Below are positions 3,441-59,931 of a DNA stretch of 64,000 nt, in pieces (the stretch's first letter is position 1; every line of letters starts with the position of its first letter). The DNA is from Phoronis australis. Lineage: Eukaryota > Animalia > Phoronida. A program made the position numbers and the translations under genes. Below the pieces are notes generated by a model that was not told where the DNA came from, searched no databases, and saw only the letters and a list, made by a program, of their open reading frames with translations. The DNA is taken from NCBI GenBank assembly GCA_002633005.1, contig NMRA01000425.1:12883-76882 (forward strand), written 5' to 3'.

Positions 3441-3779
3441 GTATGTAAAATGTCTCTAAGAATATGCCCAAATTTGGTAACAAATCAAATTATTTTCAAG
3501 GTCATTATTGCTGAACTGTGATCTGCTAACAGTAAATAGTGAACTGGGTGACGTGTAAATAGTGAAGTGGGTGACGTGTAAAACATTTTTTTTCTTTTAA
3601 AGTGATTAAAAACTTAAGCCTTAAACTGGTTTCATGATACAGGACCGAGAAATCTGTCAGGTTTGCATCAACACCAAGTAGAATAATTGAAATTGTTGTT
3701 CAAAACACTTGCAAGGCAACTATGTGCACACGAACTGGAAACTCACCTACAAAGTTTCATGTCTCACTACTTTTTACAG

Positions 3780-4082
3780 CTGGACGGAATACTTTTCTAT
3801 CACAAACGGACTCATTACCTATTCGGTGTAACCCCCCTTGTACTGTGGCTGAAAGCATACATGGTACCGGAGCTGCTTGGGATCAAAGTTCACAATAAGT
3901 ATATGCAGGATATACCATCAACGTATACATGTTTTGGTGCTCACATTGAACAAGTGAAGCGAGACAAAGAAGAAAATAAAACAGAGAAGACTAGGAGGAA
4001 TCCAAAGGTCAAAAATGGATCTGACAAAATGGACACAACACACACTGATTCAGTTCCTTTTAAAGAAGGCTGGGAGAGCTGA
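3780..4082 (+). CDS. SNUPN: Snurportin-1 last coding exon
   Basis: ttacag acceptor; [34 protein letters not shown] (DG.LFYHK.THY..G.TPLV.WL..YM motif), running to TGA at 4080-4082. Confidence 0.92.
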
Positions 4083-6532: not shown

Positions 6533-6630
6533 CTATTTTGACTTAAGTTCACATATGTAACGTGCTTTGTCGCTACAGCCCTTGATTTCCATGTTCTGGG
6601 TACTGGGATTGAAAACCTCGCATGCTGCAT
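6533..6630 (-). CDS. Copy A exon 3: C-half of C-type lectin fold
   Basis: ctctttcag acceptor, phase 1; (D)AACEVFNPSTQNMEIKGCSDKARYICELKSK* has the terminal C-x7-C/YICE pattern of CTL domains. Not in the ORF track. Confidence 0.72.
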
Positions 6631-7450
6631 CTGAAAGAGACAACAGTCACGTGGTATGAGTAATACAGTAACAGTCAGAAGATAGAGTTGCCCCTTACTT
6701 ACTTGAAAACACCGCAATTCATTGTTAGTGAAAGAAATTTGTTGTTTGAAATGATAAATATAATTAAAGAAACACAATTTTGGTGCGGGCTTAGTATTTT
6801 GTGTTTTGCCTCAAACAAAACTTCGAGTGCAATAGAGTGTCTGTGATTTTTGACCTCAGTGGCACTAATGTTAATTTCATTCAGACAGTTGCATGTACTT
6901 GGCACATGCAGGGAGACAGGTTCCAACTTCTTCGGAAACGATCAAAATCAAATCAGTCGACATACCATTTGACTGGGGTTTGTAGGGTTTATGCGTCCCC
7001 CATTTTTCGTCAGAAATGTGTGATCCCCTTACATCTAAACGCGATCCGGCACCAGTAAAATACGGAACATGAAGTTCATTACAGAATCAATTATTTATAC
7101 GCCAGGTTCTCAAAAACCATAAACGCATGACTGCTATGTAAGTTGATGTACACTTCACGTGTCTCATAAACGAGGATTTTGAACGTGAAGTTAATTCCAC
7201 AACGCAGTGGTAATGTATAGTGAACAATTTAGCAATTTGTAATCAGTACAGAGGGAACTTCTTGTCCAATGACTACACTTAAAAGATACAACTAAACGTA
7301 CATGATCCGTTTATTTAAAAACACAGCTTTATTTTAAATGAACAATACTACTACAGTTTGTTACACAGTGTTCATATTTAAATATTCAGCAACAAGGCCG
7401 ACAATCTATAGGAGTCAAATTTTGAAACGAGGAAAATAGTAAATTCTTAC

Positions 7451-7984
7451 CAACAACGCTCCACACCTCAACGTCGGTCCATTTAATTTCCTTTCCACAG
7501 CCCGCGAGTGTGCCGCTGTAGGTGGATTTACTGCAGTAGCCGTTAGACGGGAAGTACTTGTTGGAGCTGTCATACGAGATGCTACCACTGAAGAACTTCA
7601 GGTCGTAACCCCCGCCAAATGCTGGACCATGCTTGTACTCATCGTACATACCGTACACTTGATATCCGCTCTTCAGGCGGTAACTGGCCGATGTACATCC
7701 TTGTCTACACAGCTGAAACACGAATGTGTTGTTGTCGTACTTGTAAAAATCGACACTTGTCCAGGAGAGAGAGGTATAACCACCGAACGTGGTTCCGCTC
7801 GTTGAATCTTTCCCAATAGAGATGGTTGGGCCCTTGTTGTTGCATCTGCTGTGAAATACTGAAGCGTTCATTCCATCACGTGATGCCCGGTACAGGAGCT
7901 TGAATGTCTTTCCCGGGAACCATTCTCTCAGCAAAGCTGCGTGGGCTTTAGTTAACAGGCTTGAACAAAGAATGGCTCCCATGT
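7451..7984 (-). CDS. Copy A exon 2: TLDc domain
   Basis: LLYRASRDG...FHSRCNNKGPT...FGGYTS.SW...FVF...GPAFGGGYDL...DVEVW motifs. tttcag acceptor and G|GTAAGA donor; 534 nt, phase 1-1. Confidence 0.88.
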
Positions 7985-8394: not shown

Positions 8395-8902
8395 CTTTTC
8401 CCATATCTTTACTTTCAGCCCATATGGTGTCGCCAATTTTCAACGATTCTTGACCAAGGAGAGATCTCAAGCGGTGAGAGTCCATAGAGACTAAATGAGA
8501 ATTATCTTCAAGGCATTTTCGTCTCGCTGTTTCCCAATTCACTGAATCGTTGCTCAGTTTGAAACAGGAATGTCCAAAGTAACGATATTGACTCGGGCAG
8601 TATTGTTTACATAGATTGCGTTCGAGTGAAGACGACGACATTTCGCGCTGGAGTATAACTTCCTGAAGTAATTCGGTAGCATATGGAAAAGTATTAAGGA
8701 AGTTTTCAAGTTCCGTGTGAAAATGATTCACGATTTTTAGAACGGCCGATTGGAAATTCCGATTGTTTTTTTCTTCCTCTTTCAGTAAAGAGATGACGGA
8801 GTCTTCGATAACACATCCCTTCTCCACAGGCGAAGCCGCTTGGAGACACGTGACTTCATGACACAGCACAACGATCGTAAGTAGGAGATTAGCTCTGGAC
8901 AT
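8395..8902 (-). CDS. CTL/TLDc gene copy A exon 1: signal peptide, one coiled-coil unit, N-half of C-type lectin fold
   Basis: MSRANLLLTIVVLCHEVTCLQA hydrophobic leader; YCPSQYRYFGHSCFKLSNDSVNWETARRKCLEDNSHLVS...IWAESKDMGK; AAG|GTATTA phase-1 donor. Length 508 nt = 3n+1. Confidence 0.75.
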
Positions 8903-24260: not shown

Positions 24261-25116
24261 TGATTTTGACCGCAGTGAGAGATTTTCCCGGAATAGAATG
24301 TTCAGCTTCTAAATTTAACCAATGAAAAATTCATCACAAGAATTATATTCACGCAGAAAACTTAAATATATTTAAGTTTTCAAATGTGAATGGTATTTAA
24401 CAGCACATAAATTTCTTGCTTTTTAATTCTTAATTGCGTGTAGTTTAAGCCGTGTCGTGGGCGCCGTATTATTCTCACTGATGTTCACAGATGTAACGTG
24501 CTTTGTCGCTGCATTCCTTGCTTTGCAGGTTCTGTGTACTGGGATTGAAAACCTCGCATGCCGCATCTGAAAAAGTGGCAACAATCACGTGGTACATGTA
24601 TGAGTAATACAGTAACAATGAGAAGTTTGAGTTGCCGATTACTTACATGTACTTGAATGCACCACAACTCTTGGTGTTGGTGNNNNNNNNNNNNTGATTT
24701 TGACCGCAGTGAGAGATTTTCCCGGAATAAAATGTTCAGCTTCTAAATTTAACCAATGAAAAATTCATCACAAGAATTATATTCACGCAGAAAACTTAAA
24801 TATATTTAAGTTTTCAAATGTGAATGGTATTTAACAGCACATAAATTTCTTGCTTTTTAATTCTTAATTGCGTGTAGTTTAAGCCGTGTCGTGGGTGCCG
24901 TATTATTCTCACTGATTTTCACAGATGTAACGTGCTTTGTCGCTGCATTCCTTGCTTTGCAGGTTCTGTGTACTGGGATTGAAAACCTCGCATGCCGCAT
25001 CTGAAAAAGTGGCAACAATCACGTGGTACATGTATGAGTAATACAGTAACAGTCAGAAGTTTGAGTTGCCGATTAGTTACATGTACTTGAATGCACCACA
25101 ACTCTTGGTGTTGGTG
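24261..25116. repeat. 422-bp direct duplication around an N gap, including copy B exon 3
   Basis: 24261-24682 and 24695-25116 are near-identical and separated by 12 Ns. Confidence 0.9.
24909..25000 (-). CDS. Copy B exon 3: CTL C-half (duplicate at 24475-24566)
   Basis: tttttcag acceptor; (D)AACEVFNPSTQNLQSKECSDKARYICENQ*. Confidence 0.72.
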
Positions 25117-25838
25117 AAAGAAATTTGTTGCTTGACCTTGACATATATTTTAAATAATAAATAACATTCTGAGTACAACAGAGTGTATGTGATCGTTTGC
25201 CCGAGCGGCACTAATACAAATTTCGTTCAGACAGATAGTTGGCATATTTAGGGAGACAAGGTCTCGCCTCTTAGGAAACGACCGAAACAAATGCAGCCGA
25301 TATGTCACTTGAACGAGATTTGTAGGGGCTACGCAAACATGTGACTTCAGAAAATAGTAATTCGTCCCCCATTTTTCCTCAGAAATGTGTGACCCCCCTT
25401 ACATCTAACTTTAATCCGCCTGTAAAATACAAATCATGAAATTTAATTTATAATCAGCAACTAATTTGCTTGGTTCTCCAAAATTAAGCAAGCTGAACCG
25501 CATGATCACGTGACTCATAAACGAGGAGTTTTTCTTTATTTTAATTTAGAACGTGAAGTTAATTTGACAACACAGTGGTATTGTATAGTGAGTCAGCTAG
25601 CAATATGTGAATGAATTTCTTGTCGAACGCCTACACTTAAAAGATACAAATTAAATTGCATACTTATTCTGTTTATTTAAAAACGCAGCTTTTAAAAAAC
25701 GTCATTGCTACAGTTTGTTTGTTGCACGTGTTACCAATAATTATGTTGAAAAAGATTATTATTACTAAATACCTATCTACAAAGCGGAAAATTCATAGGA
25801 GGCAACTTTTGAAAGGAGGACAAAAGGTAAATTCTTAC

Positions 25839-26366
25839 CAACAACATTCCACACCTCAACATCGGTCCATTTAACATTGCGTCCACAGCCGAGTTCTCCA
25901 TTGTAGGTAGATTTACTGCATCTGCCGTTAGACGGGAAATACTTGTTGCTACTGTCATACGAGTGGCTACCATAGAAGAACAACAGGTCGATACCTCCGC
26001 CAAAGAATGGGCCATGTTTGTAATGATCGCGCAGGGCGTTTTCTCGAAACCAGTACTGGCTGTACCTGACTGATGTGCATCCTTGTCTGCACAGCCGAAA
26101 CACGAAAGCGTTGCTGTCCTTCTTGTAGTCGTTGACACTTGCCCAGGAGACAGAGGCATAACCACCGAAAGTGGTTCCGCTCGTTGAATCTTTCCCAATA
26201 GAGATGGTTGGGCCCTTATTGTTGCATCTGCTGTGAAATACTGAAGGCTTCATACCGTCACGTGTTGCCCGGTACAGGAGCTTGAATGTCTTTCCCGGGA
26301 ACCATTCTCTCAGTAAAGCTACGTGGTCTGTAGTCAATAAGTTTGAACTAAGAATGGCTCCCATGC
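25839..26366 (-). CDS. Copy B exon 2: TLDc domain
   Basis: Open TLDc frame; ttttag acceptor and G|GTAAGA donor; 528 nt, phase 1-1. Confidence 0.88.
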
Positions 26367-26755
26367 CTAAAATTCAAGAGTATCATACAAACACGGAGTT
26401 TCATCCATGTTTTCAAGGTGACAGCGCAGTTTTGGCTAATGGAATTATAACATTAAAAATGGCAGAAACCAAAATGTTAGTTTACGATTTTGTCACATGA
26501 ACAGCAAAAAATGAGTCACAATTAATGAAACGTGAAACCTGGGTAGTTTATTCATGAATGAATCCAAGGTAAAAGAATACTGGTAAAAACTACAGACTGT
26601 TAACACTTACTTGTCTGAAGCTTAAAGTAAGATAGTGCTATCATGTAAGATGATGGGATTTTGAAATAAGCACAACTAAGGATCATGCAACTTATAGAGT
26701 GGAATAAACTAAATCGCTTCTGAAAATTGGCATTTAACGCCATTGACATTAATAC

Positions 26756-27545
26756 CTTTTCCCGTATCTTTCCCACCAGCCCATATGATGTCGTCTGTTT
26801 TCAACGATTCTTGACCAAGGAGAGATCTCAAGCCATGAGAATCCATTGAAACTACGTGAGAATTGTCTTCAAGGCATTTTCTTATCGCGGTTTCCCAATC
26901 CACTGATGTGTTGCTCAGTTTGAAACACGAATGTCCAAAGTAACGATATTGACTTGAGCAGTACAATTTGCTTAAAATGCGTTCAAAGGAGATCGATGAC
27001 ATTTCTCGTTGACTTATCACTTCCTGTTGTAACTCGGTAGCATTAAATGAAATGGACTTTCGTAGTTTCTTGTGAGAGCGATTCATAGTTCTTAAAATCG
27101 TTGAATGAAATTCCCGATTTTTACGTCCTTCTTCAATGCTTTTGTTTTGCATTCCTTCAAGCTTCGTTTGAAAGTGAGTTATGCTTTTTAGAACAGCCGC
27201 CTGAAAAATTCGGTCCTTAAGTCTTTCTGCGTTGCTACTGTTTCGCATTTCTTCAAGCTCTGTTTGAAAGCAACCCAATGCTTTTAGAATGGTCGATTGA
27301 AAATCCTGGTTCTTAAGTTGCTCTTCGTTGCTACTGTTTCGCATTTCTTCATGCTTAGGTTGAAAGTGAGTTACGTTCTTTCGAACAGTCGATTGAAAAT
27401 CCCGGTTGCTTTTTTCTTCGTTTTCCAGCAAAGAGATGACAGAATCTTCGGCAACAGACCTCTTCGTGGCAGCCGAAATCGCCTGGAGGGATGCAACTAC
27501 ATGGCACAGCACAACGATGACTACCAGGAGATTAGCGTAGAACAT
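26756..27545 (-). CDS. CTL/TLDc gene copy B exon 1: signal peptide, four coiled-coil units, CTL N-half
   Basis: MFYANLLVVIVVLCHVVASLQA; four FQS/FQA/FHS repeat units; YCSSQYRYFGHSCFKLS..VDWETAIRKC..IIWAGGKDTGK; AAG|GTATTA donor. Length 790 nt = 3n+1. Confidence 0.75.
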
Positions 27546-30484
27546 TTCTGATCATAGATTTATCGACATAGACGTGCACAGTTAAACCGTTTTCCAACAA
27601 CAAATAGCAACAAATGTCCTGACTTGTAGAGCGTTTCTCAAGGTTGTGAATGTGACGTAGACATAACATTTCTTGATAAGGTGAACGTTGATACTAAAGT
27701 GAAATGTTTTTCTTGTGTGAGAAACACTGAGATTAGATAAGTCCATGAATATGGTCAATAGTTTATGTGCAAGATACAGCGAAACGCATACACGTACGTA
27801 CATGTACGTTGACACGCATACCAACAAACCACTGAGAGTAATCCCTGATGTTTTGCATAAAAGTCCTCATGTTTTTAAATAAGCGATCTCAGTGTACTGG
27901 GAGGGAAAATTTTTAAAGCGTTCCTACAGTGAATTTTTGCACTTTTTGAGGTTCTAGACCGTGTATGAAATTAACTTTATAGTTTATGGGTATTGAACCT
28001 AGTGTTAATTTCAACTGTTACGTAATTGATGGAAATTATGAAATTAACCTTACTGTATTATTCACCCAGAACGATATTAGAATTCACGAGGGACTTTTGT
28101 TAACTTATAGTGACTGGTCGTATTGCATTAGGAGCACCAGCTGCCACCTGGTGGTGTTAAGATGTACTTCCAGTTCAAAGTGGTAAACAGAAGGACCTGT
28201 AAACAGATTATTCGCTTGTTTAGTATGACGTTATTTTTGAAGATTTTGACCCGGTCAAATAAAACTAAGATGCAAAAATTTAAAAACTAGAATAATAATT
28301 AAGCCACACTTATGTATCGCTGTATATTTGTGAGGTCTTGGAAAATTATTACCCCATTAATTATGGACTTGCTCTTTCTCAACTCTTCGGGAGCATACAG
28401 TAAGTGCAAGAGTTGTTGTTTCAATCCAAAAACACAATTGTGTTAGCAATTCATGTGTTTCCAAGACCTGCAAAAACTTTGAAAACATGATGTGACTGAG
28501 TAGTTCTATTACTATTTGTGGGTCCACGGCTCCTTGATAGCAGCTTATACGTCATCACTAAACACCCGAATAACATTTTGTTGGATGATGAGCGTTCTTA
28601 TTTTATGTTACAGCATCACGGGGAAACAGAATGCAGTAAACGTCGCGTAAGCCGGTTCAACCAGAACGAGATATGTCATGTCAGATCATCTACCAATGTC
28701 ATGATGTACCACTGAGCGTCTCTGCTGACTAGTGAAATATGCAACTACAATGTAGTTTTTGTTTGTTTTACTCCAATTAACGACTCACATGCTCTGTTGT
28801 GCCCTGCTTTCTCGAGCCAATCGCCCTCATTGTCGGGTTAGGTCGGGTTAAACCCTATCCCATTTGTACTCTAGCTCATTGTTCATGTCGAACTCGTTTT
28901 CAAGATCTTGCCTGAACTTTTCAAACGCAACGATTGGTGACAAGTAAAAGACACCAAGTTTAAAGACTTGCGTATATCATAAGCATACTTCTCTATCGTG
29001 CCATCTATTTTAAGAGTATCTGTCAAAACAGTGCGCCAGAATGTACAAGAACCATGCCATCTATGGAATCGCTTGATGATCATTTAATTGCAATAAAGCA
29101 AATCAGTCAGAGTTGTCAATATGTATCTCTACACTAGACTAATGCCAAGTTTAAGCTGCTGTGAAGCCTGTGTTCTATCCATGAAACAAGCTAATAATTC
29201 GTAACTGTTAACTCTCAGTTCTAGGAAAGCCTTGAAATCACGTCCAGTTTAACAAAAGAAATTCTTAGACCTAGTTCTAAAACTGTAAGTTCACAAAGTA
29301 AAAAATTGATTTTTGTAACTGAAGGCGAGTGTTTTGAATTTTTGAAAACCGGTTATCGTCTGTTTTACAGTTGCCGGTTGGCGCTGGGTTTGGGTAACTC
29401 GAGGGCTGTGGGGAAAACATCCGTTCAACCGCGAATTGTAAAATCCAGTTAGTTACGCAATGAGGCTAATCAAACACTTAACTTCTGGTGGTGTCACTAA
29501 AACAAACAATTTAATTCAGTAAAAGTGAATACTTTCAGACCTCTGTAGAACTTTATTTTGACATTAAACCAACCTGCCAGTAATTAGATCACATGACATC
29601 GTTTTAGGAAAAGATAGAACAAATAGAAGGCACATCCACAGCACACGGTCTGATCTCCATTCTTTGGTTATCAGAGTTGAAGGTGAGACAGGAATCTGAA
29701 AGTTAATTTATGTAAAATAGTAACCTCTAATGGTATAATATTATTATACAGTTATTGCAATTACTCAAATCATTCACCAACTTAACACGTCATGTATTTT
29801 GGCATTTTACATCGCATTTCGTCAGCTAAAATGACCTTAACGTAAATTTTTCAAAACCCATATCATTCGCAAAATCACTAGTTGTAGTCGACAATATATC
29901 AATACATTTTTGCCATTGCCTCATTGAAATGAAGCCATCGCTAACGCGGTAATTACTCTACTATACACATCGGACCTTACATCTGTTTCCTTATTAAACG
30001 GACCTCTTGGGAACAGATCGAACGACCAAGTACAAGATGCCGTGAAAAGGGCCTCCTGGCAATCAATGCGGGAAGTGTAGATATCTACTGGTGAAGTTCA
30101 ACATGCCTTGAAACTGGTGGAGTTTTTAATGAAAGGAAGAGTGCCGGTACTAATAAGAACAATGATGACAATGAGAATTATGATAATAGTGTGGTATAAC
30201 ACAAGAATGCACACAAAATGCCATCGTCATCTTTAATTGAGAAACAACCGGTTCTTTGTTGGTAAAACACGATCACGTAAAACACGTACTGAGATGACGG
30301 AAATTTCCAACACGTCCGTAATTCACTAGAGGCAGTAAAAGTGTCTAACACCCTACCTCAAAAATGGTGGATTTGATTGAGATGAAATTTTCGGATACAC
30401 TACTTGATGTAGTGATTTCCAAAGGTGTGTTAAATGTTATCTTAAATGGTTTCATTTTTCACATGAACAGCCAAAAATGGAGTC

Positions 30485-31460
30485 GATAACATTTTGCCAT
30501 TTCTGGACGTGTTAGTAGAGCGTGAGGGTACCTCAGTGATAACATCAGTATTTCATAAGAAGACTTACACAGGACTGTACACTTGTTTTCATAGCTTCAC
30601 ATCCTTTGTTTATAAAGTAGGTCTCATAAAGACGCTAATAGACAGGGTATATCGCATTAACAACACTTGGGCTAGATTTGATTCTAATATCAAAGAACTT
30701 ACAACGAATTTGCAAAAGAATGGCTATCCCCTAGAATTAGTCAATAGGGTACTGAAAGCAAGACTCCAACGTAACCCTGATGATGTTCATCCTGTAGACA
30801 AAACTAACTACAAGTACTTTAAAATACCCTATGTTGGGTTTTACGCCAAAATTGCTCAACGAAAACTCAACAAATTGGTGAATGATTACTGTGTGAACTT
30901 AAGAGTTGTATTAACATTCAAGTCTCTAAAACTGTCGAGTTTATTTAACCCTAAGGACAAAATTTCTATGGGTCTACGGTCCAAGGTTGTATACAAATTT
31001 ATCTGTGCTGGATGTGGCTCCAGTTATATAGGCGAAACTGTTCGCCATTTGAAAACCAGGACCAAGGAACATCTAAATTCTGACAGTAATTCACATGTAA
31101 ATATTCACCTGCAGAGCTCCAATCATTGTTATCAGCAGTGCTCTTTCAATGACTTTGCAATAATAGACCAGGCAGTAACAACAAAGGAGCTTAAAATTCG
31201 TGAGGCTTTACATATCAGTTGGTGCAAGCCCAATCTCAATAGGCAACTGACACACCACAGGTTGTCATTGTTGGTATAGTTCATTGTCACTCCCTGTAAC
31301 TGACTGTATCTGTGCTTCATTACTTGTTGCTGGGCCTAGCTAGGTGGCCACTGTATTATGACTTCTGAGGATGGTGTTTAATAAATGACACCGAAACATG
31401 TCAAGTTTTAAATCCGTTGTTGTTTTCGTGAACATATGCTGTTACTTGCTATCATGGAGA
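30485..31460 (+). mobile_element. 5'-truncated Penelope-like element (RT thumb plus GIY-YIG) inserted in intron 1 of copy C
   Basis: ORF 30494-31279: LPFLDVLV..TSVFHKKTYTGLY...NGYP...PYVG...VVYKFICAGCGSSYIGETVRHLKTRTKEH...EALHI...PNLN. Both flanks match the family's intron 1. Confidence 0.9.
31360..31407 (+). ncRNA. Minimal type I hammerhead ribozyme motif in the Penelope 3' region
   Basis: actt-CTGAGGA-t-GGTGT(loop)ACACC-GAAA-catg-TC-aagt gives stem I actt/aagt, stem II GGTGT/ACACC, palindromic helix III CATG and a UC cleavage site. Confidence 0.7.
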
Positions 31461-31464
31461 AGTC

Positions 31465-31872
31465 ACTTAAAACCTAAGTAGTTTATTCATCAACAGAGCG
31501 AACATAACCGAAAATACCGCAGGTAAAAACAACATACAGCTAACACTTACTTAATATAGTGTATACAGTTAATATTTGTTCTAAAATGATGGGATTCTGA
31601 AATACGCACAAGCGTTAACTTGGTGATCATAAATCGTATAGAGTGAAAGATTTCTTTACCCAAGATGCTCCTGAAAAACACTTGCATTTCTTCAAGATCA
31701 TGGTTTTTAAAACAGTCGATTGGAAAATCCGGTTGCTTTTTTCATTCTCGTTCAGTAAAGAGATGACAGATTCTTCGAAAACAGATCTCTTCGCCGCAGC
31801 CGACGTTGCTTGGAGAGATGCGACTTCATGACACAGCCCAACGATGACTACTAGGAGATTAGAGTTGAACAT
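31465..31872 (-). pseudogene. CTL/TLDc family copy C (internally deleted exon 1; TLDc and exon 3 absent)
   Basis: MFNSNLLVVIVGLCHEVASLQATSAAAKRSVFEESVISLL..., then jumps straight into intron-1-homologous sequence; interrupted by the Penelope element. Confidence 0.8.
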
Positions 31873-35946: not shown

Positions 35947-38900
35947 TGCGTCAATAAGTAGAACAAAAAGTCCAAATGAAGATATATTCGAAACGCTTAA
36001 CGACAGAATACAACGAGGAACCGGCAGGAAGTTAACAGAAACCACAACTCGAATACTATAGTTCAAACATACTGGCGTCACCACTTCCTCTCTCTCCCCC
36101 TTCCCCTCACCCTCCCCTTCCCTCTCCCTCTTCCTTTCTGTCCTTCTCTCAGAGGGTACCGGTGGATCGTTGGATGAACAGGATGGGAGACAGGCTGAGC
36201 TTGAGTCTGATAAGACTCGGGAGGGTCCACGATAGGGGGGGGTGAGATGTGACGGCTGTTCCGGTCAAAGTGAGTCATTGGGGGAAATCTGAGGTTGGGT
36301 CACCGAAAACGGTGGAGTGTCAGCAGGTCAAAGTCGGCATCGTCATCCGATGGGCAAGATAAACCTCGAACAGGTCCATCAGACGGAAAGGCCGTACTGG
36401 GAACAGCATAAAAATCGGAAATCGGCGCACGGTGTAAGCCTTACTGCGAAATTGATAAGAGGTAAACTTGCGTAGCTCACACCAATCATCAGATATGGCA
36501 AACACCAAATAACGCTCCAGAGCACGTGTCTTATCCTTGTCGCCTTTGAGGTACACTAACTCGCCGACAGTAAGCACAGTCGTAGAAGGAGCGACAAGAC
36601 GACGAACCTTAGAAGTAGCACAAGGCCTATGATATCATGGTCCACCACTGGAAGCTGAAAACTTTTGAATTGGTCGCGTTGGATCCATAGTTCACGCAAA
36701 GATAAACCATCCCGACGCGGACGGGAGTTGAGATAAGATGTGGCAAGTGACACGGTCACTGGAGAAATGGGACAACCATCTAGGGATAGACGTAGGAGCA
36801 CCATTCCCAATTTCTCTATAGCACGCTCTCCAAGAAGGTTTTTATTCGGGTTCTTGACACTTCCAATATCTAGGGTGAATTCCCCGCGAAATAGGCTGCT
36901 AATCGATCTTCAAAGCAAGAAAGCCAGGAGCCGACTCAACACGTATCGTAATTCAACCGTCACGAACAGGACTAAGATCAGACCACATGATCAACAAGGC
37001 AAAGCAAAGTTTATCGTGGGTATCGCCTGAAAGAAGCAGTGCTAAGGTGTAGAAAGTAACAGTGTCCTTTAAGACCAGTATGAACAGTCGATAGCGGCGC
37101 ATGACGTCAGCGGCGAAGAAGGAGCCAAAGACACCTGGAGCAGGTGAAGTGGACTGCGGCTGGACAGCTTTAGAAACGGAGTCGACAGCTTTGTCCAGAT
37201 CTACAGCAAAGAAGTAAAGATTAAACACACGTATGATCTGGAAACGAGAAGGGTGACCGAAGCGGATATGGAGAGCAGTCAGGAGAATGTCAAGTACGGA
37301 TCTTGGTACAACAATGCGATCTCGCGGTGGATGCAAAGTTTCACATGATTTGACCACTAACACACCATCTCGTGCAATGGCAACGTCCTTAAGGTAACGT
37401 TTGACGTCGGCAATTATGGTCAGCTTTCCTGGATGGCCGGGTTCCTGGCGAAAGATGCGCGTGGGTATGTCGTAGCTCGGGGCAATTTTGTTGAGTAACA
37501 TGCCAGGCGGCAAGGCTTGTGAAGGGCATGTGAGACGAGCCGTTGATGACGTCAGAAACAAACAAACCACGGTCGATTGAGTCCTTAAATTTGGCGATGA
37601 ATAGGCAAACTTCACATGATAGCTCTGGGCACGGTAAGGGATTCCTGTTAGAGAAGTCTGAAGGCAAGTTGGTGACATCGGCGATATGGCGTACACGAAT
37701 GCCATAGCGGCTCAAAGTGAACAGGAATGTAGAAACTCTGACGCTGTTTGAGAACTCGCCGCGATTCAAATTTTCATAAGCCTGAACACAAGGGCGGCTA
37801 TGTGTTAAAACCTGTGTGGTATGATCAGACTGGATGACGAACGGAGCAAAGTGACGGACAGAATCAGCTATGCATGGTGCTTCCATGTCGCAGGGTAGTG
37901 CTTTTATTCGTAATTTTTCGTAAGTGAAGCTTGCCGTCTCTGTTGACGATCAAGATAGCAGCAATGCCACGATTCTTGTCAGACCCATCGGTGACTATCC
38001 ATAAAATGTCTTGAAGCAGGTGTAGCGTGATGACTTTGGTGTTGGAAAGGGCATCGTGGGAAGCCTTGAAAGCGGAAAGTAAATCATAAGACCAAGTGAT
38101 ATGTTGTTTCGAATAACGGCCTGCGACAGTACGTTTCAATGGGTCCAAGAGGCCTGCGTAACCCTCTAGGACGCGACTCAACACCTTGTAAGCACCAGTA
38201 TAAAACCCCAGTCCGTGAACACTGGACAGGGATGATACCGAAGACAACGCTGCGACTTTGAGAGCTTGCCTGCAAGGCACCACTGGACTATACCCACCCA
38301 AGTACGACGATCGATTTAGGACAAATTATGATCTTTCTGGCGGATAAACGAAGGTAATTATACTTGAAGGCCTCTAAAACACGACGCCAGTTTTGCAGGG
38401 CTTCGTGGGGGAGGGTAGAACCACCAACGTACAAATTATCGACAATTTTGGCAACATAACTTTCTTGGACTAGATCGCCCAAGACGCCAGACATCAGTTC
38501 CTCAAGGCACGTCTCAGACCCGGGAATGCCCATTGCAGAACGGGTTTACACACGAATGCCTTTGTATGGAATGGCGACACCACAATACTTCATGGAGGAA
38601 TGACTAAGCAGAATTTGGTAGGACTGCAAACCGAGACAACGAGGAACTTTCACTTTGCAATATCCCGTAAGACACTATTTACGTTAGGAATTAACGAAGG
38701 TTGAGGCTTGTTGTACTGGGTAACTTCACCAAAGGAAGTGACAAGTCTATTACCGCCATTGGACTTCTTAACAAGGAAGTACGTGTTGAGATACTCTACT
38801 GTGACGTTCCTCAGCTCCGGCTAAGCAAAAACATCAGAATTCTCTANCGCCGTTGCATTTGGAAATGACGGGGTTGAAAAGTTCATATTCGTGGTGTAAG

Positions 38901-40969
38901 TCGCGGAACTGCTGGCGTACACTGAAAAGTAAAATGTTGTCCAGGTCGAAACATACAGCGCCAGAGATGAAGGGGCACTGGAGGTGAGCCTCCTGGGGGA
39001 GATGAGATAACATATTTGGCATAAATGTTCACCGTTGCGAACAAGAATAGGAATGTCAGTATCGTTTTTCAAACGAACGACGTTATCGATAGAGGTCACC
39101 TCTTGGGGCAAGGCCAATCGTGCTCTGGTTTGCAATGCAAGTTGAGACGGCTATCCAAGCGTGGTTCAACGGCCCGCGAGGCGTCAGAGTGGGTTGAGGT
39201 AGGAGTACACAGGTGGAGGTATTCACCAAGGAGAACAACTGAGGGCTTAGGGCTCCACAACAAAAAAGATTGGGTTAAGCGGGCAGTAGGAGTAACGTCG
39301 ACATGGGTTGATCTGCCGTATGTGACAATCTCGGTGCCCTAAATGATGACCTAGCGTTTCACAGGACGAACAGCTATGTCATTCAGGGCAAGAAATGGGT
39401 TACTGGCGAGAATGTCGACCTCGAGGTGGCGGACGACCAAACCATCTAGTAAACGGAAGTTGTGGTTACCACGATGTAGCAATGTACTTCACCGGTGACG
39501 TCAAGAGGAGCGACACCGTCGGCCTGGCGAGCCAACTGGGAAGCAGGTGTTATGTGAAACCAAACATCTTGGCAGCAGAAGCACGAATCATGTTAGAAGT
39601 GACTAAGGTATCAAGGGTGATGGGTACAGGGTGATCCTCGTTGAACACCTTGAGGACAGGGGACTGAAGAATGTGCACTCTACCAACAGATGATTCGTCG
39701 AGTAACGCGCATCGCTCAAAGCTTTGGGAGACATTCTCGTCATCTACCCCCTCGTTGGGGGTATCAGGTTCGGAATCAGTGCGTCGGGATTTGGCAAAGG
39801 CACGTCTGCTACTCTCGGAATCTTCAATCGAGTAGTGTGAAGTGTGAGGGCCACCAGCTGTCTTGCAAAGCACGCAAGAGACAAATTTTCTACGAGTTTT
39901 GTCGTGGAAACCACGATCGACGACACGCAATGCTCGGGAGTCTTCGATGGAACACAATTCATCCAGGAGAGAGGAGAGCGCTTGCGAAATCTCTGGTTTC
40001 AACGAGGCCACGGTTTTATTACGATGTTCCGAACCGTAACACTGCTTCACTAACTGGGTGGATCGACTGCAACCATAAACAACATACCATGTTCTCCAAT
40101 GTGGGGCGGATGTCCTCGTCCTGGGTCACAATATCTCCGTGATGGGATAAGCCACAACCTATTTGTAAGGAGATTGTCCTCAGCGAAGGCGGACAGGCGT
40201 TGATAAAGATCTTCGGGTCCTTCGTCCGGTTAGAGCACAATCATTGACATGTCAAGAAACTGGGAACCTGTGGCTGCAAAGCCAAATTGCTGGAGTATTT
40301 TTGCCAAATATCTGACAGCGATGTAGACTGGCGGAAAATAGAATTTCTGCTGATAACAGGTCAGTAGTTAGAAATCTTTCCAAACTTGACTTCGAGATGG
40401 GCGTTTTTTTGGACTGTCATGCGGCGAGACGCCGCTGGAATTAAGTCCGCATCGTCAGCGAGGCCTTTAAGTAGCGAGGTCGAAATTTTCTTGAGCACCT
40501 TGAAGTTGTCATCGATGAAACATGCAAAGTTTTCGTCCAAGCTGAGCACATAAGTCAAATTTTGCCGCCATTTCTCAAAACTTGTAATAGTTTGTTAAAC
40601 ACCACTGCTTTTGGGGACAGGGACATAATACATGTATATAGTATGTACACAAGAATATCACGATTATGTAACGTACGAGTTAAGGAGTAAACGCCGAGCG
40701 AGTAGCGTTGGCAAGTTGCTTCCGGTAAACGAGAATTCTGTGGGTCGAAGTTGAGTTTGGGATGTCAATGCCCATATACGGACTATACGCGCTTGATTTT
40801 GTTGGCGTGAGAACCACCGCTGACACCACGCCAATAAGTAGAAGAAAGAGTCCAAAGTGAGTGAAGATACATTCGAAACACGTAACGACAGAATACAGCA
40901 AGGAACCGGAAGGAAATCTAACAGAAACCATAACTCGAAGACAAGAGTCCAAACATACTGTCTGGCGCT
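35947..40969 (-). mobile_element. Full-length but decayed Ty3/Gypsy LTR retrotransposon
   Basis: Short LTRs at 35947-36080 (TG..CA) and about 40829-40969. PBS-like TGGTGTCAG after the 5' LTR and a polypurine tract at 36084-36135. Frameshifted gag, protease (LDT), RT (IVDNLYVGG), RNase H (WIVTDGS) and integrase (H..FGHP) in Gypsy order. Confidence 0.88.
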
Positions 40970-41769
40970 GCGTGACTTTTCTTTATGATAAGGACTCGGC
41001 ACTTTGCTCCAACTACAACGCAGAGGACTCCATAATTCGGTATAAACGCAGTAATATATTTGGGTGGCAGGTAAGACACGGGCTTAGATGGTAGGTTAAT
41101 ATTATTTTATCCCCCCTCGTCCTCCCCCTCGATCCCTCCCTCCTATTCCCTTCCTGCGTCGCCCGTTACCTCTCAGTTTGATTCGACCCAGTTCAAGGTG
41201 CAACCATTAATTGAACAAAAGTGTTGCATATTTCCTAGGATTCCTTTACTTTGCTGAGATTTTACATTTCACATGCACACACTCCCAGCTTCTGTAGGGG
41301 GACTGTGTGGGTTCAAAGAGTTCAGTAATCTGAACAAAAGTGACCCAAATCTCTATTATAAACAACATACTAAATCACGAAGAATCAACATTTGGTCGGA
41401 CTTCAAAATCACTTGCCCGGACTTCAAAACCAGATGAATGGACTGCAATCAATGGCTGGTGGTCAGGCCTCACACCAGGTTGACCGATATCGCAAAACCA
41501 GATTATCACCACCAAAAAACTGGTTGTCCGGACCTAAAACGGGGTTACCGGTGCTGAAACACAACTGCCGAACAAATCGTCGATTTTGAACAAAACAAAG
41601 TGCACGGGTGGCGCACCATAGTGGGCTGGGGCTATAGCCCCCCACTTTTTTCAGTGCTTCGCCGAACATAAATCTATAGGTGGTGCCCCACAGGGGGGCA
41701 GAGAGGGCTTTATTCCCCACTATTTTCAATGCTGCGCCGCCCATGAAGTGGTATGAAAATGAACACTGT

Positions 41770-48845: not shown

Positions 48846-48931
48846 TCAAAGTTCACAGATGTAGCGACCTACATCAGTACACGGTCTCCCCTCCATTGTT
48901 TGGTTACCAGGATTGAAAGCGAGGCAGGGAT
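48846..48931 (-). CDS. Copy D exon 3: CTL C-half (divergent)
   Basis: ctcttttcag acceptor, phase 1; (D)PCLAFNPGNQTMEGRPCTDVGRYICEL*. All three Cys, FNP and RYICE are kept despite heavy divergence. Confidence 0.72.
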
Positions 48932-50121
48932 CTGAAAAGAGAACGAAACACAGTAACACTCTGTGGATATAGGGTCATACAATAACTATTTAGAATATCG
49001 AATTTCCGATATGAAATAAAAAGAGTAAACTTGCTCATACTCATCCATTCACTATGTGGCTATGGATAATTAAGTCGGGCATTCTTAAAAATTATTCATA
49101 TTTATACATACATTTTATTGAACCTTTGGTGCCGTTTCAGACAATTGCGTTCTTCAGTGAAAATTAGGAGTGCAGTGACATTTACGAAAAATGAGATAAA
49201 CCACTCCAAGTATATATCCGAAATTTGCAGATAAAGGTTTTCTGATAAGTAAAAATTTGAATTGTACTCCGAAGAATACAGTGCGTTGTCAAAAACACAA
49301 AATGCTGGATTGGGTTCTATTACAGAGTAAACGTTTCCTTTGTTAAATTTCATTTCAGGGGTACTACAGATAATCATTAATCGAATAAACAATTACGACA
49401 TCTATGCGACACGTAAATATTGCACAAATGAATTATTATAAAACAATTGAAAACAGCAATAACACACACACAGAAACACACACTCTTAGCTAAGCAATTA
49501 TGAGCAATCGAAAGTTACGAAAATACAATTATTTTAATCCTTCTTAATGAATTTTTCATTGAGGTTAACTGTAACACAATATAAACACCCAAAAAATGTC
49601 TTCTTGAAAAACGTCTGGCATGCGGGTAGGTTATGGAAACTGGTTCTAAGACTGAAGCTGAAAAGATATCAAACCCCAAACTACAATATACCTCGGTATC
49701 TACCAAGGTTCACAAGTCGGTGATTGTAAAGAATGACTAGCGTAATTGTCGGGTTTGTTAACTAATTTTGCAGTGAAATTCTTGGTTGTATGGAACTGTA
49801 CCTTAAGAGTCTCTATTGATGAACAATAATAACAAAATTAAAATGAACCAATGAAATTATGTTTGATTTGATAACTACAACTCGATCAAAACACAAATTC
49901 GCAGCGCAAACGCTCGCGGCTAATATCGGAGGCACAAGTTGTAATATCTGAATACATAGCTCACGTACGGCAGTTGGCATTCCAGGGCTAGATATGGACA
50001 TAAGTACAGTGTAATGTCAAAAAGCATTTTTTCCACTTGCGTGTTTATGTATATGACAAACTCGCTTATTGCTCCTCTTTATACTCATGAAGAACTTTTA
50101 CGTTAAAAGTCTAATACATAC

Positions 50122-50655
50122 CAGCTACTTTCCACACCTCAACGTCAGTCCATTTAACGTTGCTTCCACAGTAGAAATGACCGTCGTAGGTGGTTTTACC
50201 GGACAAGCAGCAGCCGTTAGACGGGAAGTACTTGTTGGAGCTGTCATACGAGTAGCTACCAGAGAAGAACAACAAGGAGTGATCCAGACCAAAAGATGGA
50301 CCATAGTTGTTCTTGTCGTACAGAGCGTATTCGTAATACCAGAACGGGACGTACTTGACTGTTGTGCATCCTTGTCTACACAGCCGAAATATGAATGCGT
50401 TGTTGTCGGGCTTGTACATATTGGCACTTGTCCAGGAGACAGAGGCATACCCACCGAACGTGGTTCCACTCGTTGAATCTTTCCCAATAGACATGGTTGG
50501 GCCTTTATTGTTGCATCTTCTGTGAAATACTGAAGCGTTCATTCCGTCACGTGATGCTCGGTACAGAAGCTTGAATCCCTTTCCTGGGAACCATTGTCTC
50601 AGCAAAGCTACATGGTCTGTAGTCAAGAGGTTTGAACTGAGAATGCCCTCCCTGT
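50122..50655 (-). CDS. Copy D exon 2: TLDc domain
   Basis: ttttag acceptor, then AC AGG GAG with no ATG at the exon start, so it behaves as an internal exon. G|GTATGT donor; 534 nt. Confidence 0.88.
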
Positions 50656-51067: not shown

Positions 51068-51770
51068 CTTTTCCCGTCTCTTTTCCATCAGCCCATATGA
51101 TGTCGCCTTTTTTAAAAGATTCTTGACCAAGGAGAGACCTCAAACGATGAGAGTCCATAGAGACTATGTGAGAATTCTCTTCTAGACATTTTCTCCGTGC
51201 AGTTTCCCAATCCACTGATACGTTGCTCAGTTTAAAACACGAATGTCCAAAGTAACGATATTGGCTTGGGCAGTACAGTTTACTTAGAATGCGTTCGAAG
51301 GAGGACGATGACATTTCTTGTTGACGTATCACTTCCTGTAGTAACTCGGTTATATTAAGTGAAAACTCATTGTGAAGGTCTTTAATCTCCGTGTGAAAGC
51401 GATTCGTGATTCTTAGAATCGTCGACTTAAAATCCCAGTTCTTAAGACTTTCTTCACCGCTTTTGTTTCGCATTCCTTCAAGCTCCGTTTGAATCCGCGT
51501 CACGGTTTTCAGAATGGTCGATTGAAAATCCCGGTTCTTCAGTTTTTCTTCAATGCTATTGTTTCGCATTTCTTCAAGATTCGTTTGAAAGCGAGTCATG
51601 GTTTTCAGAACAGTCGATTGGAAATTTCGGTTGTTTTTTTCTTCCTGTTTCAGTAAAGAGATGACGGATTCTTCGAGAACAGATCTCTTTACGACAGAAG
51701 AAACCTTCTGGAGAAACGCGACTTGATGACACAGCACAACGATGCCTACTAGGAGGTTAGCGTTGAACAT
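51068..51770 (-). CDS. CTL/TLDc gene copy D exon 1: signal peptide, three coiled-coil units, CTL N-half
   Basis: MFNANLLVGIVVLCHQVAFL; YCPSQYRYFGHSCFKLSNVSVDWETARRKC...IIWADGKETGK; AAG|GTATTA donor. Length 703 nt = 3n+1. Confidence 0.75.
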
Positions 51771-53603: not shown

Positions 53604-55105
53604 TCACCTGAGTGGCACTATTGTAAATTTTATTCTGGCACTTACTTGATATATTAGGACGACCTCAGGGAGGCAGGGTCCTTCAGAAACGACCAAAAAG
53701 AAACGCGGTCGACATGCAATCATGCAATTTGTAGATATTAAGCGAACATTTTCCTCCAGAAAATTGTGATTAGCCCCCATTTTTTCGTCAGAAAAGTGTG
53801 ATCTCATTTCATCTAACCTTGATCCGCCGGCATGGAATATCAAGTTTCATAAAGATTCAGTAATTAATTTACCCGCTTCTCAAAAACTGAAACACGATTG
53901 CATTGCTGTCGTACTTGTAACTCCCGACACTTGTCCAGGAGACAGAGGCATAACCACCGAACGTGGTTCCACTCGTTGAATCTTTCCCAATAGAGATGGT
54001 TGCACCCTTATCGTTGCATCGGCCGTGAAATACTGAAGCGTTCATACTGTCACGTGATGCCCGGTACAGGAGCTTGAATGTCCTTTCCGGGAACATGGTC
54101 TGTAGTTAATAGGCTTGAACTAAGAATGGCTCCCATGTTTAAAATTTGAACATATTATACAAAGAAGGTGTCTCATCCATGTGTCCGGGCTGACAGTGCT
54201 ATTGTCGCTCTTAGACTAGTTATAGCCAAACAACAAAAATGGCAGTACCCGAAAAAGAGTTTAAACGATTTTCGTAACACGAACAGCCCAAAATGGGGTC
54301 ACAGTGAAACGTGAAATCTGAGTAGTTTATTCAACAAATCTGGTGTAACTGAAAATATTATTGATAAAACAACAGACATTTAACACTTACTTAATCTAGT
54401 TTATCTATGTTGTGATATGATGGGATTCTGAAAGCACGATTGTGACTAGGTCGTCATGAATCTTACACAGTGAAATATTTCTTCACCTAAAATGCTATTG
54501 AAAAAGACATTTAACGCCAATTGGGATTAATGCCTTTTGCCGAACCTTTTCCATCAGCCCATATGGTGTCACCTTTTTTCAACGGTTCTTGACCAAGGAG
54601 GGATCGCAAACGACTGGAGACCGTAGAATCTACGTGAATTGTTTTCAAGGCGATTCCTTTTCGCGGTTTCCCAATCTACTGAAACGTTGCTAAGTCTGAA
54701 ACACCAATGTTCAAAGTAACGATATTGACTTAGGCAGTAAAGTTTGCGATGACATTTCTCGTTGGCGTGTCACTTCCTTGAGTAACTCGGTAGCATTAGG
54801 TGAAAAGACATTGCGTAATTCCGTGTGAAAGCGATTCTGGTTTTAAGAACCGTTGAATGAAAATCCCGGTTCTTCCGTCGTTCTTCACCGCTTTTGTTTC
54901 GCATTTCTTCAAGCTTTGTTTGAAAGAGAGTTAAGGTTTTCAGAACAGTCCACTGGAAAGTGCAGTTGTTTTTTTCTTCCTCTCTCAGTATAGAGATGAC
55001 GTATTGTTCAAGAACAGATCTCTTTGCGACAGCCGAAGTCGCTTGGAGAGACGCAACGTCATGACACAGCACAACGATGACTATTAGAAGATTAGTGTTG
55101 AACAT
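53604..55105 (-). pseudogene. CTL/TLDc family copy E
   Basis: Exon 1 has two coiled-coil units and is frameshifted; the donor is GC. The TLDc acceptor AG has become AA, there is a 20-nt deletion, and the TLDc is truncated at about 53870. Exon 3 is missing. Confidence 0.85.
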
Positions 55106-57688: not shown

Positions 57689-59931
57689 TTCGTCCAATTT
57701 CACTATTGAATATTACTTACAAACTTTTGTCTGGTTGTATTGCTAGACGCCTAAAAGGCGTCCTCGTACCCCTTATTCACGAGAACCAACAAGGTTTCAT
57801 GAAAGGCAGATATATTGGGGAAAACATAAGAATTTTATATGATGTAATTCAATTCTTAGACTGTAAACCCTTTCCCGGACTCCTGTTAATGATCGATTTT
57901 GAAAAAGCTTTCGACTCGGTCTCCTGGTCTTTCATCCTCAAGGCATTATCATACTTTAACTTTGGCCCAAGGTTCATTGACACGGTCAAAACACTCTACA
58001 ACAAATCTTGTCTCTGTGTTCTCCAACATGGATTTTTCTCTGAATTTTTTGAAATGGGGAGAGGCTGTCGTCAAGGAGACCCCATTTCTCCTTACCTTTT
58101 TTTATTATGTGTAGAAATATTGGGTAATTTAATTCGTCGGGATGGTGGCATCACTGGTGTCAGGATAGGTGTTTCTGAGTTTAAATTGATCCAGTACGCT
58201 GACGACACTTGTTTGATTTTGGACGGTTCTGAGTTATCTCTAAGATCATCTTTGAATTTAATTGACCAATTTGCGAAATTTTCTGGTTTGAAGCCAAACA
58301 TCGAGAAAACAAGATGTGTTTGGATTGGTTCAAAAAAAGACTCTCACGAAAAACTTTGTGTCAATGAGAACCTGTTATGGACCAACAAACCTTTCATGTT
58401 TTTGGGAATTAACTTCTCCACTGATTATAATACAATGCCGGGTATTAACTATAGTTGCAGGTTTTTGGAAATTAAGAAAATGGTGGGCTCTTGGTCAAGA
58501 CGAATTCTTACTGTTTTAGGTAAAATAACCGTGGTTAAGACACTTTTATTGCCCAAGATTGTTCATTTGCTTCAATCCCTCCCTAGCCCCTCCATTGACA
58601 TGATTCAAGAATTAGAGCGAGTTTTTTTTGGCTTCATTTGGAATGGGAAGAATGATAGAGTTAACAGAAATGAAATTGTACAAAATCAGGATCATGGTGG
58701 TCTAAAAATGGTTCATGTTAGTTTTTTTATTAAGTCTTTGAAAATATCGTGGCTTCGTAAACTATTCACCTCAAATACCATACGTGACCTTGCAGAGGCA
58801 GTTTTGGGTTGTAAAGTTGATAACTTTTTTAAAATGGGAGACGCTTTCCTTAAAAAATTAGCTGAAGGCACCGACAATATGTTCTGGAAGGAAGTTTTAA
58901 GCGATGTTGTGCTCCTGTTTCAAATGTGTGACAAAAATGAAAATATTATTTACTCTCCCCTGTGGTATAATTCAAAGATTAAAGTTGGTAAAAAATCTAT
59001 TTTCTACAAGACCTGGTATGAAAGGGGAATCTATCGTGTGTGTGATTTGTTTAATGCTGAAGGTTCTTTTATGTCATACGAACAACTCTGTAATAGTTAT
59101 AACTTTCAACCTCCAATACTAGAATTCTATGGATTAAGAAGTGCAACCTTTGCAGCGTACAGGGGTCTTAAGAATAGACAAGACAACATCTTTTTACCAA
59201 ATTTTCCAAATTATATGTATAAAATTTTACATAATAAATCACAAGCGGTAAATATTTATGACACCTTAGTACAGTCACTTCAGACAGCTTGTAAGTATAA
59301 AAACAAGTGGTCATCTGAGATAGATATAAACGGTGTTATAAATAATGTAAATTTTAGTGACTCTGATTCATGGTGGAGAAAAGTAAATAAACTCCCCTTC
59401 AATTGTACAAAAGATACAAAATTGCGTTGGTTTCAATACCGCTTAATTCACAGAATATTGCCAACTAATAGTTATTTACATAAAATTAAAATAAAAACAA
59501 GTGATTTATGCTCTTTCTGTGGTGAACACAGTGAAACTTTTCTCCATCTGTTTTGGGAATGTCGTCTTGTCTCCGTTTTCTGGCTCCTGTTTACTGACTG
59601 GTTAAAACAAACATATCATGTAAATTTTCATGTGGACAAGATAGCAGTGTTTTTTGGTTTTTTGGGAAACATTCAGTCGGAAAATTGTAATATTAATTTG
59701 CTGATCATGCTAGCAAAAAATTACATATTTAGCCAAAAGTTTGTTAAAAAAAATCTTAATTTCCAATTGTTCATAAACTTTATTAAATTACATCCTGAAG
59801 GAAATACGGTACTTGTTGAGTAATGATTTAATGTTATCTTTTGTAAACGATGTATAGTATATTGTTTGATTCGACTTGTAATTATCATGCTAGAGCAAAA
59901 TAAAAAACTTCAAGTGAAAAAAAAAAAAAAA
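57689..59931 (+). mobile_element. 5'-truncated L1/Tx1-type LINE with uninterrupted RT ORF, poly(A) tail and 16-bp TSD
   Basis: FRPISLLN..., IDFEKAFD, GCRQGDPISPYLF, QYADD and a C-terminal CSFC...HLFWEC. Poly(A) at 59917-59931; TSD aacattagcatttcat at 57673-57688 and 59932-59947. Confidence 0.95.

Follow-up and report, generated by a model that had tools for sequence, protein, structure and literature searches.

Why is a TLDc domain found between the two halves of a C-type lectin-like domain (CTLD), and why do short segments of it differ strongly between neighbouring gene copies? The question is raised by a stretch of 64,000 nucleotides from Phoronis australis (assembly GCA_002633005.1, contig NMRA01000425.1, positions 12,883 to 76,882 of the forward strand; hereafter the window), in which four TLDc copies, termed A, B, C and D, lie on the minus strand. 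A preliminary description of one copy B exon had noted a conserved framework interrupted by variable patches rich in Tyr, Trp and Phe, and had taken this layout to suggest a diversifying ligand-binding surface. The main new result is an RNA-verified TLDc domain nested where a lectin-like scaffold would carry its long loop, i.e., an architectural variant of known domains. The functional reading is plausible, and diversifying selection on the patches is unproven.

A TLDc domain in place of the long loop of a CTLD

The gene structure of copy B was evaluated with stranded RNA sequencing reads of the same species label, which were mapped to 24700-27800 in the runs X6, X7 and X8 with a threshold of three reads per joint. 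The joint 25000|25839 was crossed by 36 reads in X6 and 47 reads in X7, and the joint 26365|26755 by 30 reads in X6, 46 in X7 and 1 in X8; both had GT..AG borders on the minus strand. The borders of the TLDc exon were thereby placed at 25839 and 26366, exactly the stretch flagged in the preliminary description, and no joint skipping this exon was among those listed for the mapped region at the threshold. Exon 1 (26756..27545, minus strand), delimited by RNA depth and the donor joint, contained the start codon, a hydrophobic N-terminus, four neck repeats and the N-terminal half of the CTLD. The TLDc exon (exon 2, 25839..26366, minus strand, 528 nt, phase 1-1) overlapped an open frame of 195 residues (25777-26364, minus strand). 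Exon 3 (24909..25000, minus strand) was joined to it by the RNA reads and encoded the last CTLD strands (AACEVF...YICENQ) and the stop codon, its frame and cysteines being read from the sequence. The three-exon gene of copy B is expressed and spliced. At the codon where A and B have the ATG of the motif MGAIL, copy D has AGG, indicating that the TLDc exon is internal and that MGAIL is no initiation site. A separate nested gene beginning at MGAIL with a myristoylation-like start was ruled out by the RNA joints together with the AGG in D.

The long loop region of a CTLD is its ligand-binding part, where calcium and sugar are bound in true lectins. When the final 71 residues of exon 1 were compared with the PDB, all 60 sequences listed were CTLD proteins, the best being PLA2R (E value 2e-6), DEC-205 (2.5e-5), CLEC-2 (0.0017) and DC-SIGN (0.004). 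These alignments always spanned the N-terminal half of the CTLD (beta1-alpha1-alpha2-beta2), up to the WIGL strand. In exon 3, the segment AACEVF...KEC...YICENQ corresponded, from its sequence, to the cysteines C2, C3 and C4 and the final CTLD strands. The complete six-cysteine CTLD pattern (C0-C0', C1-C4, C2-C3) was read from YC..SCF and RKC in exon 1 and from AACEVF..KEC..YICE in exon 3; it was present in A and B and, in the form CLAF..RPC..YICE, in D, with the disulfides being predicted only. Since the TLDc exon is joined between the N-terminal half and the last strands, the TLDc domain occupies the long-loop position of the CTLD; in the mRNA of copy B, the TLDc domain (176 residues) takes the place of the long loop. 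The Pfam family Lectin_C (PF00059) stayed below its gathering score of 22.6, with 15.2 bits (E value 0.036) for the N-terminal half of A and no match for the N-terminal halves of B or D nor for the whole exon-1 open reading frames (ORFs). The CTLD is split between exons, so a full-length Lectin_C match was not scorable. No EPN, QPD or WND motif was read in the translations of copy B exons 1-3. Moreover, the N-terminal half of the CTLD was under purifying selection, with ratios of nonsynonymous to synonymous substitution rates (dN/dS) of 0.13-0.22 in every pair, those with D among them.

In copy B, the hydrophobic N-terminus of exon 1 was read by eye as a putative signal peptide. It was followed by a neck of 96-nt (32-residue) repeats bearing N-glycosylation sequons (27143-27406 in copy B), of which B had four, D three and A one. 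The AlphaFold2 model of exon 1 (263 residues, three-row alignment) had a mean predicted local distance difference test score (pLDDT) of 35.9 and was unusable; hence, a helical form of the neck stays an inference. The predicted complex of the CTLD N-terminal half, the TLDc domain and the exon-3 peptide scored 0.72, and a control with the TLDc domain replaced scored 0.67, which was evidence neither way. The encoded protein is likely secreted, as the hydrophobic N-terminus and the extra cysteines of the TLDc domain argue, at the level of sequence, for export.

The identity of the nested domain was clear. Pfam PF07534 matched copy B with an E value of 1.6e-21, and the scores of 77.4 (B), 93.8 (A) and 70.2 bits (D) compared with a cut-off of 24.5, over profile positions 4-169 of 170. 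The AlphaFold2 model of the TLDc domain (42-row alignment) had a pLDDT of 81.8 and a predicted template modelling (TM) score of 0.84. Foldseek matched it to 4acj, 7obp, 7u8o, 6r82 and 7fde with a probability of 1.00, E values of 4e-7 to 1.5e-4 and TM scores of 0.54-0.71. In the TLDc fold, according to PMC8329711, N-terminal helices are combined with a ten-strand pseudo-orthogonal beta-sandwich, in which sheet 1 is formed by beta1-5 and beta10 and sheet 2 by beta6-9. The family-invariant residues F43, H44, G51, T53, G67, G68, W74, F87 and G122 were retained. The near-invariant residues, including the G-x-G-x-D-L loop, were all present in A and B, and D was without G124 and D126.

Two features set this lineage apart from the 39 other TLDc relatives that were aligned with it. 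The cysteines C92, C96, C149 and C160 were kept in A, B and D and occurred in none of the 39 relatives, and C47 was present in 38 of them. The four lineage-only cysteines fit an extracellular life of the domain, and their number fits two extra disulfides that the exported TLDc domain may contain. The second feature was the block SYDSSNKYFPSNG (25924..25962, minus strand; B codons 135-147). It was invariant in the alignment of A, B and D, as were LCRQGCT and KWTDVEVW, just as previously described, and it was variable and gappy across the 39 relatives. Its DNA was identical in A (7533-7571 region) and D at 39 of 39 bases. In B the same serines were encoded by codons of a different family (AGC/TCC), a sign of strong selection on those residues.

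Variable segments in a tandem array

The four copies were located by tblastn at 7386-7982 (A), in the region of the exon described above (B), at 50111-50647 (D) and at 53872-54136 (C). A, B and D were intact, and C was a pseudogene. The TLDc exon of copy A (7451..7984, minus strand, 534 nt, phase 1-1), predicted from sequence comparison, was accompanied by exon 1 at 8395-8902 and exon 3 at about 6533-6630, both on the minus strand. That of copy D (50122..50655, minus strand, 534 nt, phase 1-1) had its exon 1 at 51068-51770 and a candidate exon 3 at 48846-48931, likewise on the minus strand. The frames were open and the splice sites intact in all three exons of A, B and D. Copy C (53872..54136, minus strand) had an internal deletion and a frameshift and ended after about 95 residues; an exon-1-like piece of it lay at 54535-55105. 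In the RNA runs used for copy B, the copies C and D had no splice joints and only cross-matching reads on conserved blocks, expression elsewhere not being covered by these runs. The proteins of A and D were 75% and 74% identical to that of B, and the duplicated units, non-coding DNA included, were 72-76% identical. The window carries spliceosomal introns and retroelements, and the array is a birth-and-death cluster.

Further remnants of the array were observed. A relic unit consisted of an exon-3-like piece at 29619-29693 and the N-terminal 56 residues encoded by exon 1 at 31705-31872, separated by an insertion with a 261-residue ORF (30494-31279) without a Pfam match. Another exon-3-like piece (VNPSTQNLQTKRCNDKARYICE) at 62447-62530 had no first cysteine, and the remainder of its unit would fall past the end of the window. 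The homology of unit D to unit B ended at the splice donor of the TLDc exon (48846-50121), intron 2 of D being unrelated or saturated, and the exon 3 of D was 48% identical to that of B; this suggests a possible recombination breakpoint at the border of the TLDc exon. In addition, a 434-nt unit occurred twice at 98% identity within 24261-25116, flanking a run of N at 24683-24694, and repeated exon 3 and the 3' untranslated region of copy B. This repeat most probably arose during assembly, through haplotype duplication, and is not biological.

Four patches of the TLDc domain differed between A, B and D, and the segments quoted for them in the preliminary description were all present and different. 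P1 (26119..26139, minus strand; B codons 76-82) read SVDFYKY, SVNDYKK and SANMYKP in A, B and D, respectively, and fell in the beta3-beta4/beta5 region. P2 (26014..26064, minus strand; B codons 101-117, YSQYWFRENALRDHYKH in B) was the main hypervariable segment, beginning YRLKSG, YSQYWF and YVPFWY, and corresponded to the beta6-beta7 hairpin. P3 (25981..26001, minus strand; B codons 122-128; GGGYDLK, GGGIDLL and GLDHSLL) was the glycine-rich loop before beta8. P3 was conserved family-wide, with G122 in 39, G124 in 34 and D126 in 36 of the 39 relatives, and only copy D differed. P4 (25885..25905, minus strand; B codons 154-160; YSGTLAGC, YNGELGC and YDGHFYC) was the loop before the last strand (beta10) and contained in-frame indels. 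All indels among A, B and D were multiples of three, so that the claim of frame-keeping indels agreed with the exon lengths of 528, 534 and 534 nt, all divisible by three and of phase 1-1. The location of the patches was topological only, being derived from the DSSP string of the model and the topology given in PMC8329711; on this basis, P2-P4 lay in the second sheet and its loops, and the first sheet and the helices were constant. An origin of P2 by compensated frameshifts was rejected, as the free and the in-frame DNA alignments both gave an identity of 0.63-0.69. Compensated frameshifts may have contributed to P3 of D, where the identity rose from 0.69 to 0.79 once gaps of 1, 1 and 2 were allowed, and to P4.

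The layout of framework and variable segments was real and non-random. In the alignment of A, B and D, 68 of the 179 columns were variable. The densest window of 18 columns, at the main patch, contained 16 variable ones, which was matched by 1 of 10,000 shuffles, and the observed number of runs, 71, was attained in 145 of 10,000 shuffles. Columns 1-75 were variable at 18 of 75 positions and the later columns at 50 of 104 (Fisher p=0.001); the earlier wording of a nearly invariant N-terminal part was therefore fair. The aromatic content of the patches was 25% in A, 18% in B and 32% in D, compared with 14-15% in the framework. The excess was significant for D alone (p=0.015) and for a pooled count whose members were non-independent (p=0.007), so the described richness in Tyr, Trp and Phe held for these two but not for A and B taken singly. 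Positions 104-107 were aromatic in this lineage and in 0-2 of the 39 other relatives.

The substitution rates were calculated by the NG86 method for the 40 patch codons and the 139 other codons of the three sequences A, B and D, with bootstrap limits. For A-B, a patch dN of 0.40 and dS of 0.67 gave a dN/dS of 0.59, compared with 0.46 for the other codons (Fisher p on the nonsynonymous and synonymous counts 0.37). The corresponding values for A-D were 0.55, 0.49 and 1.13 in the patches and 0.56 elsewhere (p 0.17), and those for B-D were 0.52, 0.67 and 0.77 in the patches and 0.30 elsewhere (p 0.018). The patch ratio thus exceeded the framework ratio in all three pairs, as a diversifying surface would lead one to expect, but the difference was significant in B-D alone. 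Neutral divergence was taken from the introns, with a divergence K of 0.32-0.38 for intron 1 and of 0.32 for intron 2 of A-B. The framework dS of 0.23-0.33 was close to this intron K. The proportion of nonsynonymous differences (pN) in the patches, 0.31-0.39, was 1.2-1.3 times the intron p-distance of 0.26-0.30. In sliding windows, the proportion of synonymous differences (pS) was 0.11-0.19 in the conserved blocks and 0.42-0.47 in the patches. Among codons with the same residue, a synonymous change was found in 13 of 48 in the patches and in 54 of 333 elsewhere, a modest excess. Within P2, the individuals of the window and of the RNA differed by at least three nonsynonymous changes (R112H, E108Q and W105R) and at least two synonymous changes (H114 and Q103).

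The distribution of shared sites was explored for signs of exchange. The site patterns (AB 123, BD 99, AD 86) did not differ significantly in their proportions among the CTLD exon, intron 1 and the two halves of the TLDc exon (chi-square p=0.86), and no gene-conversion tracts among A, B and D were revealed by this comparison. Gene conversion, which the preliminary description had named as an explanation that could account for the whole pattern, does not do so among these three copies.

The RNA reads pointed to additional members of the family. Over the conserved part of the B TLDc exon (26059-26260), the RNA depth rose 3- to 5-fold. This is explained by an outside paralogue or allele at least 95% identical in this part, which then diverges at the start of P2. 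Accordingly, 212 reads in X6 and 104 in X7 were at least 95% identical to B upstream of 26059 and could not be aligned beyond it, after codon 102. By hand translation, they read IDSNYQTFAM past 26059 where B has QYWFRENALR, exactly at the start of P2. A smaller set of reads left B after codon 77 (loose end at 26134) and read GFYKYGNTTF at P1. Similarly, reads mapped to D diverged around the conserved block, with ...DLHFFGGNV before it and ...RRISYTYNS after it. The diverging reads indicate at least one further highly expressed paralogue or allele outside the window with other sequence at the same patches, and they hint at a possible exchange at patch borders.

Ligand surface, drift, recombination or decay

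The preferred reading is that the four variable segments make up a surface for ligand contact, specific to each copy, on a TLDc head, which is presented outside the cell by the CTLD-like scaffold. It is put forward tentatively, as a quite possible account. In this mechanism, the protein of copy B would be secreted and would oligomerise through its neck, the two CTLD halves would re-form one fold around the TLDc domain, and two extra disulfides would form within the latter. The variable segments would be exposed and would set the binding specificity of each paralogue, with the gene family diversifying through birth and death of copies. The presence of TLDc at the position of the CTLD ligand-binding loop in a predicted secreted protein favours a binding role, and this context lends support to the earlier proposal of a diversifying ligand-binding surface; with three copies, the rates did not reach significance, patch dN/dS not being above 1 and the excess over the introns being non-significant. 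Further points in favour are the clustering of the variable columns, the four lineage-only cysteines, the aromatic residues at 104-107, the polymorphism within P2, the patch ratios above those of the framework in all three pairs, the lack of conversion tracts among A, B and D, and the expressed relatives with other sequence at the same patches. A stronger form, i.e., a new recognition receptor with an extracellular TLDc domain in the place of the lectin long loop, an oligomerising neck, Tyr/Trp-rich loops resembling complementarity-determining regions and cassette-like exchange at patch borders across a multigene family, is unlikely.

Several observations weigh against a ligand-contact surface. 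Splicing was shown by reads for copy B alone. The bootstrap limits of patch dN/dS (0.19-3.66) did not place it above 1, and the best-preserved pair, A-B, had just 0.59. The patch excess over the intron divergence was non-significant (p=0.43, 0.11 and 0.17), even with a patch dN that was inflated because the patches were picked by their variability. The model was less certain at the patches (pLDDT 57-69), P1 and P2 were high-entropy segments across the 39 other relatives, and in these relatives the aromatic content of the patch columns was 14.6%, compared with 14.3% in the framework. The highest patch ratios involved D, which was silent in the sampled RNA and without G124 and D126; its silence and the loss of near-invariant residues indicate that D may be decaying.

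Much of this would also follow if the patches were ordinary, weakly constrained surface loops of TLDc that drift near-neutrally after duplication, with the function residing in the conserved core or in SYDSSNKYFPSNG, an account that is possible but somewhat doubtful. The patch ratios of 0.59-1.13 are compatible with 1, patch pN was about equal to the intron divergence, and the high entropy of P1 and P2 and the low pLDDT at the patches agree with loose loops. PMC8329711 likewise describes solved TLDc structures as varying in the beta3-beta4 and beta5-beta6 loops. Furthermore, SYDSSNKYFPSNG was the lineage-specific element whose conservation extended to synonymous sites. A near-neutral rate of change fits plain relaxation and a mixture of diversifying selection with constraint alike. 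What drift accounts for less readily is that all indels were in frame in three intact copies, that the lineage-specific aromatics were retained at 104-107, that TLDc sits exactly at the CTLD ligand-binding loop position, and that other expressed members switch abruptly at patch borders.

The abrupt switches could instead reflect a mosaic from recombination, in which the framework is homogenised by gene conversion or unequal exchange and diverged segments escape or are swapped as cassettes. The reads resembling B at 95% or more upstream of 26059 (212 and 104) and unalignable beyond, the end of B-D homology at the TLDc exon donor with an unrelated or saturated intron 2 and exon 3 in D, the lower pS of the conserved blocks (0.11-0.19 vs. 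0.42-0.47) and the identical SYDSSNKYFPSNG DNA in A and D all point this way. However, the A/B/D site patterns were evenly spread (p=0.86), the framework dS near the intron K makes homogenisation unneeded, the same-residue synonymous change was only modestly higher in the patches (13/48 vs. 54/333), and the diverging reads may be allelic and not paralogous in origin. Such a mosaic is considered very unlikely. The probability is similarly small that the differences arose mostly from lost constraint in copies becoming pseudogenes. A decaying cluster would contain the frameshifted and truncated C, the interrupted relic unit at 29619-31872 and a D without joints, with almost no reads of its own and without G124 and D126, and it would place the highest patch dN/dS in pairs with D. 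Nevertheless, A, B and D were open in all three exons with intact splice sites, B was well expressed and correctly spliced, the CTLD N-terminal half was constrained (0.13-0.22) even in pairs with D, and the same patches appeared in the A-B pair; moreover, silence in three or four RNA samples is no proof that D is dead.

If the ligand-surface reading is true, an exported TLDc domain with added cysteines at a lectin ligand-binding position would give the fold a second, extracellular role, and the array would constitute a new, diversified family of proteins for recognition, provided that the variable segments set specificity. The locus would likewise illustrate clearly how a symmetric (1-1) exon can nest one domain within another.

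Relation to known proteins and other features of the window

TLDc domains have been studied as intracellular regulators of V-ATPase (the vacuolar ATPase) and of the response to oxidative stress; what they do at the molecular level is still debated. The present domain has the same domain assignment, fold and invariant residues as OXR1, NCOA7, TBC1D24 and mEAK7/TLDC1 (4ACJ, 7OBP, 6R82 and 7U8O). In contrast to these characterised proteins, which are cytosolic V-ATPase binders, it is encoded by an internal exon in a gene for a predicted secreted protein, has four added cysteines, is nested in a CTLD and occurs in tandem copies varying in four segments. Among the papers listed from the open-access literature and bioRxiv, none dealt, by title or abstract, with a secreted TLDc protein, and those naming TLDc together with C-type lectins were irrelevant. 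In a 2026 review of TLDc proteins, the words "extracellular" and "secreted" are absent from the full text (PMC13570293).

At E<=0.001, a representative library yielded 8,110 relatives of the TLDc domain, and even the best of them were only 33-45% identical. The search for homologues of near length gave 19 matches among 52 candidates with an identity of <=51%, and that of longer proteins gave 8 matches among 312 candidates with <=43%; neither contained an orthologue or a nested architecture. The nearest library relatives were thus only 33-51% identical to the present domain. A search with the CTLD N-terminal half returned two candidates, none significant, and none of 125 pattern matches in metagenome contigs was confirmed. 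Among the 69 best TLDc relatives, the Pfam scan found no Lectin_C at E<=1e-5, and 21 of the 69 paired TLDc with BTB_2 by our own count. TLDc was combined with extracellular modules in P0024 (EGF/LamG), P0056 (FN3) and P0060 (MACPF) of the same 69, and FN3 with TLDc was also found in the homologue searches. These proteins likewise join TLDc to extracellular modules, but their domains stand in series and the present one is nested. In the library proteins P0027 (residues about 500-725) and P0020 (about 1250-1466), a TLDc repeat was followed by a weak C-terminal CTLD-like piece, with Lectin_C E values of 0.0085 and 0.034, respectively, and the CTLD N-terminal half undetected in either. They may be a distant parallel to the association of TLDc with a CTLD.

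Proteins of the collectin, tetranectin and DC-SIGN type consist of a neck plus a CTLD. The present protein has the same order of a predicted N-terminal export signal, a repeat neck and a CTLD; however, the long loop with EPN/QPD and WND is absent and is replaced by the 176-residue TLDc domain. Snail FREPs, amphioxus VCBPs and bivalve C1q-domain proteins are diversified invertebrate lectin-type recognition families. The array resembles them in being multicopy and predicted to be secreted, with a constant scaffold, variable segments and pseudogenes. It differs from them in that its variable module is a TLDc fold, which to our knowledge is not known as a recognition domain, its diversifying selection and immune role being putative.

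Other elements were also present in the window. A 705-residue ORF at 57706-59823 (plus strand) contained a reverse transcriptase (RVT_1, E value 1.9e-28) and zf-RVT, i.e., a retroelement of the non-LTR (non-long-terminal-repeat) type. A G+C-rich island at 36000-41000 (45-49% compared with about 38% elsewhere) held overlapping ORFs of 145-250 residues without a Pfam match and is possibly another mobile element. At 3687-4082 (plus strand), an ORF fragment matched the m3G-cap-binding domain of snurportin-1 with an E value of 4e-11 and is probably one exon of a nearby, unrelated gene.

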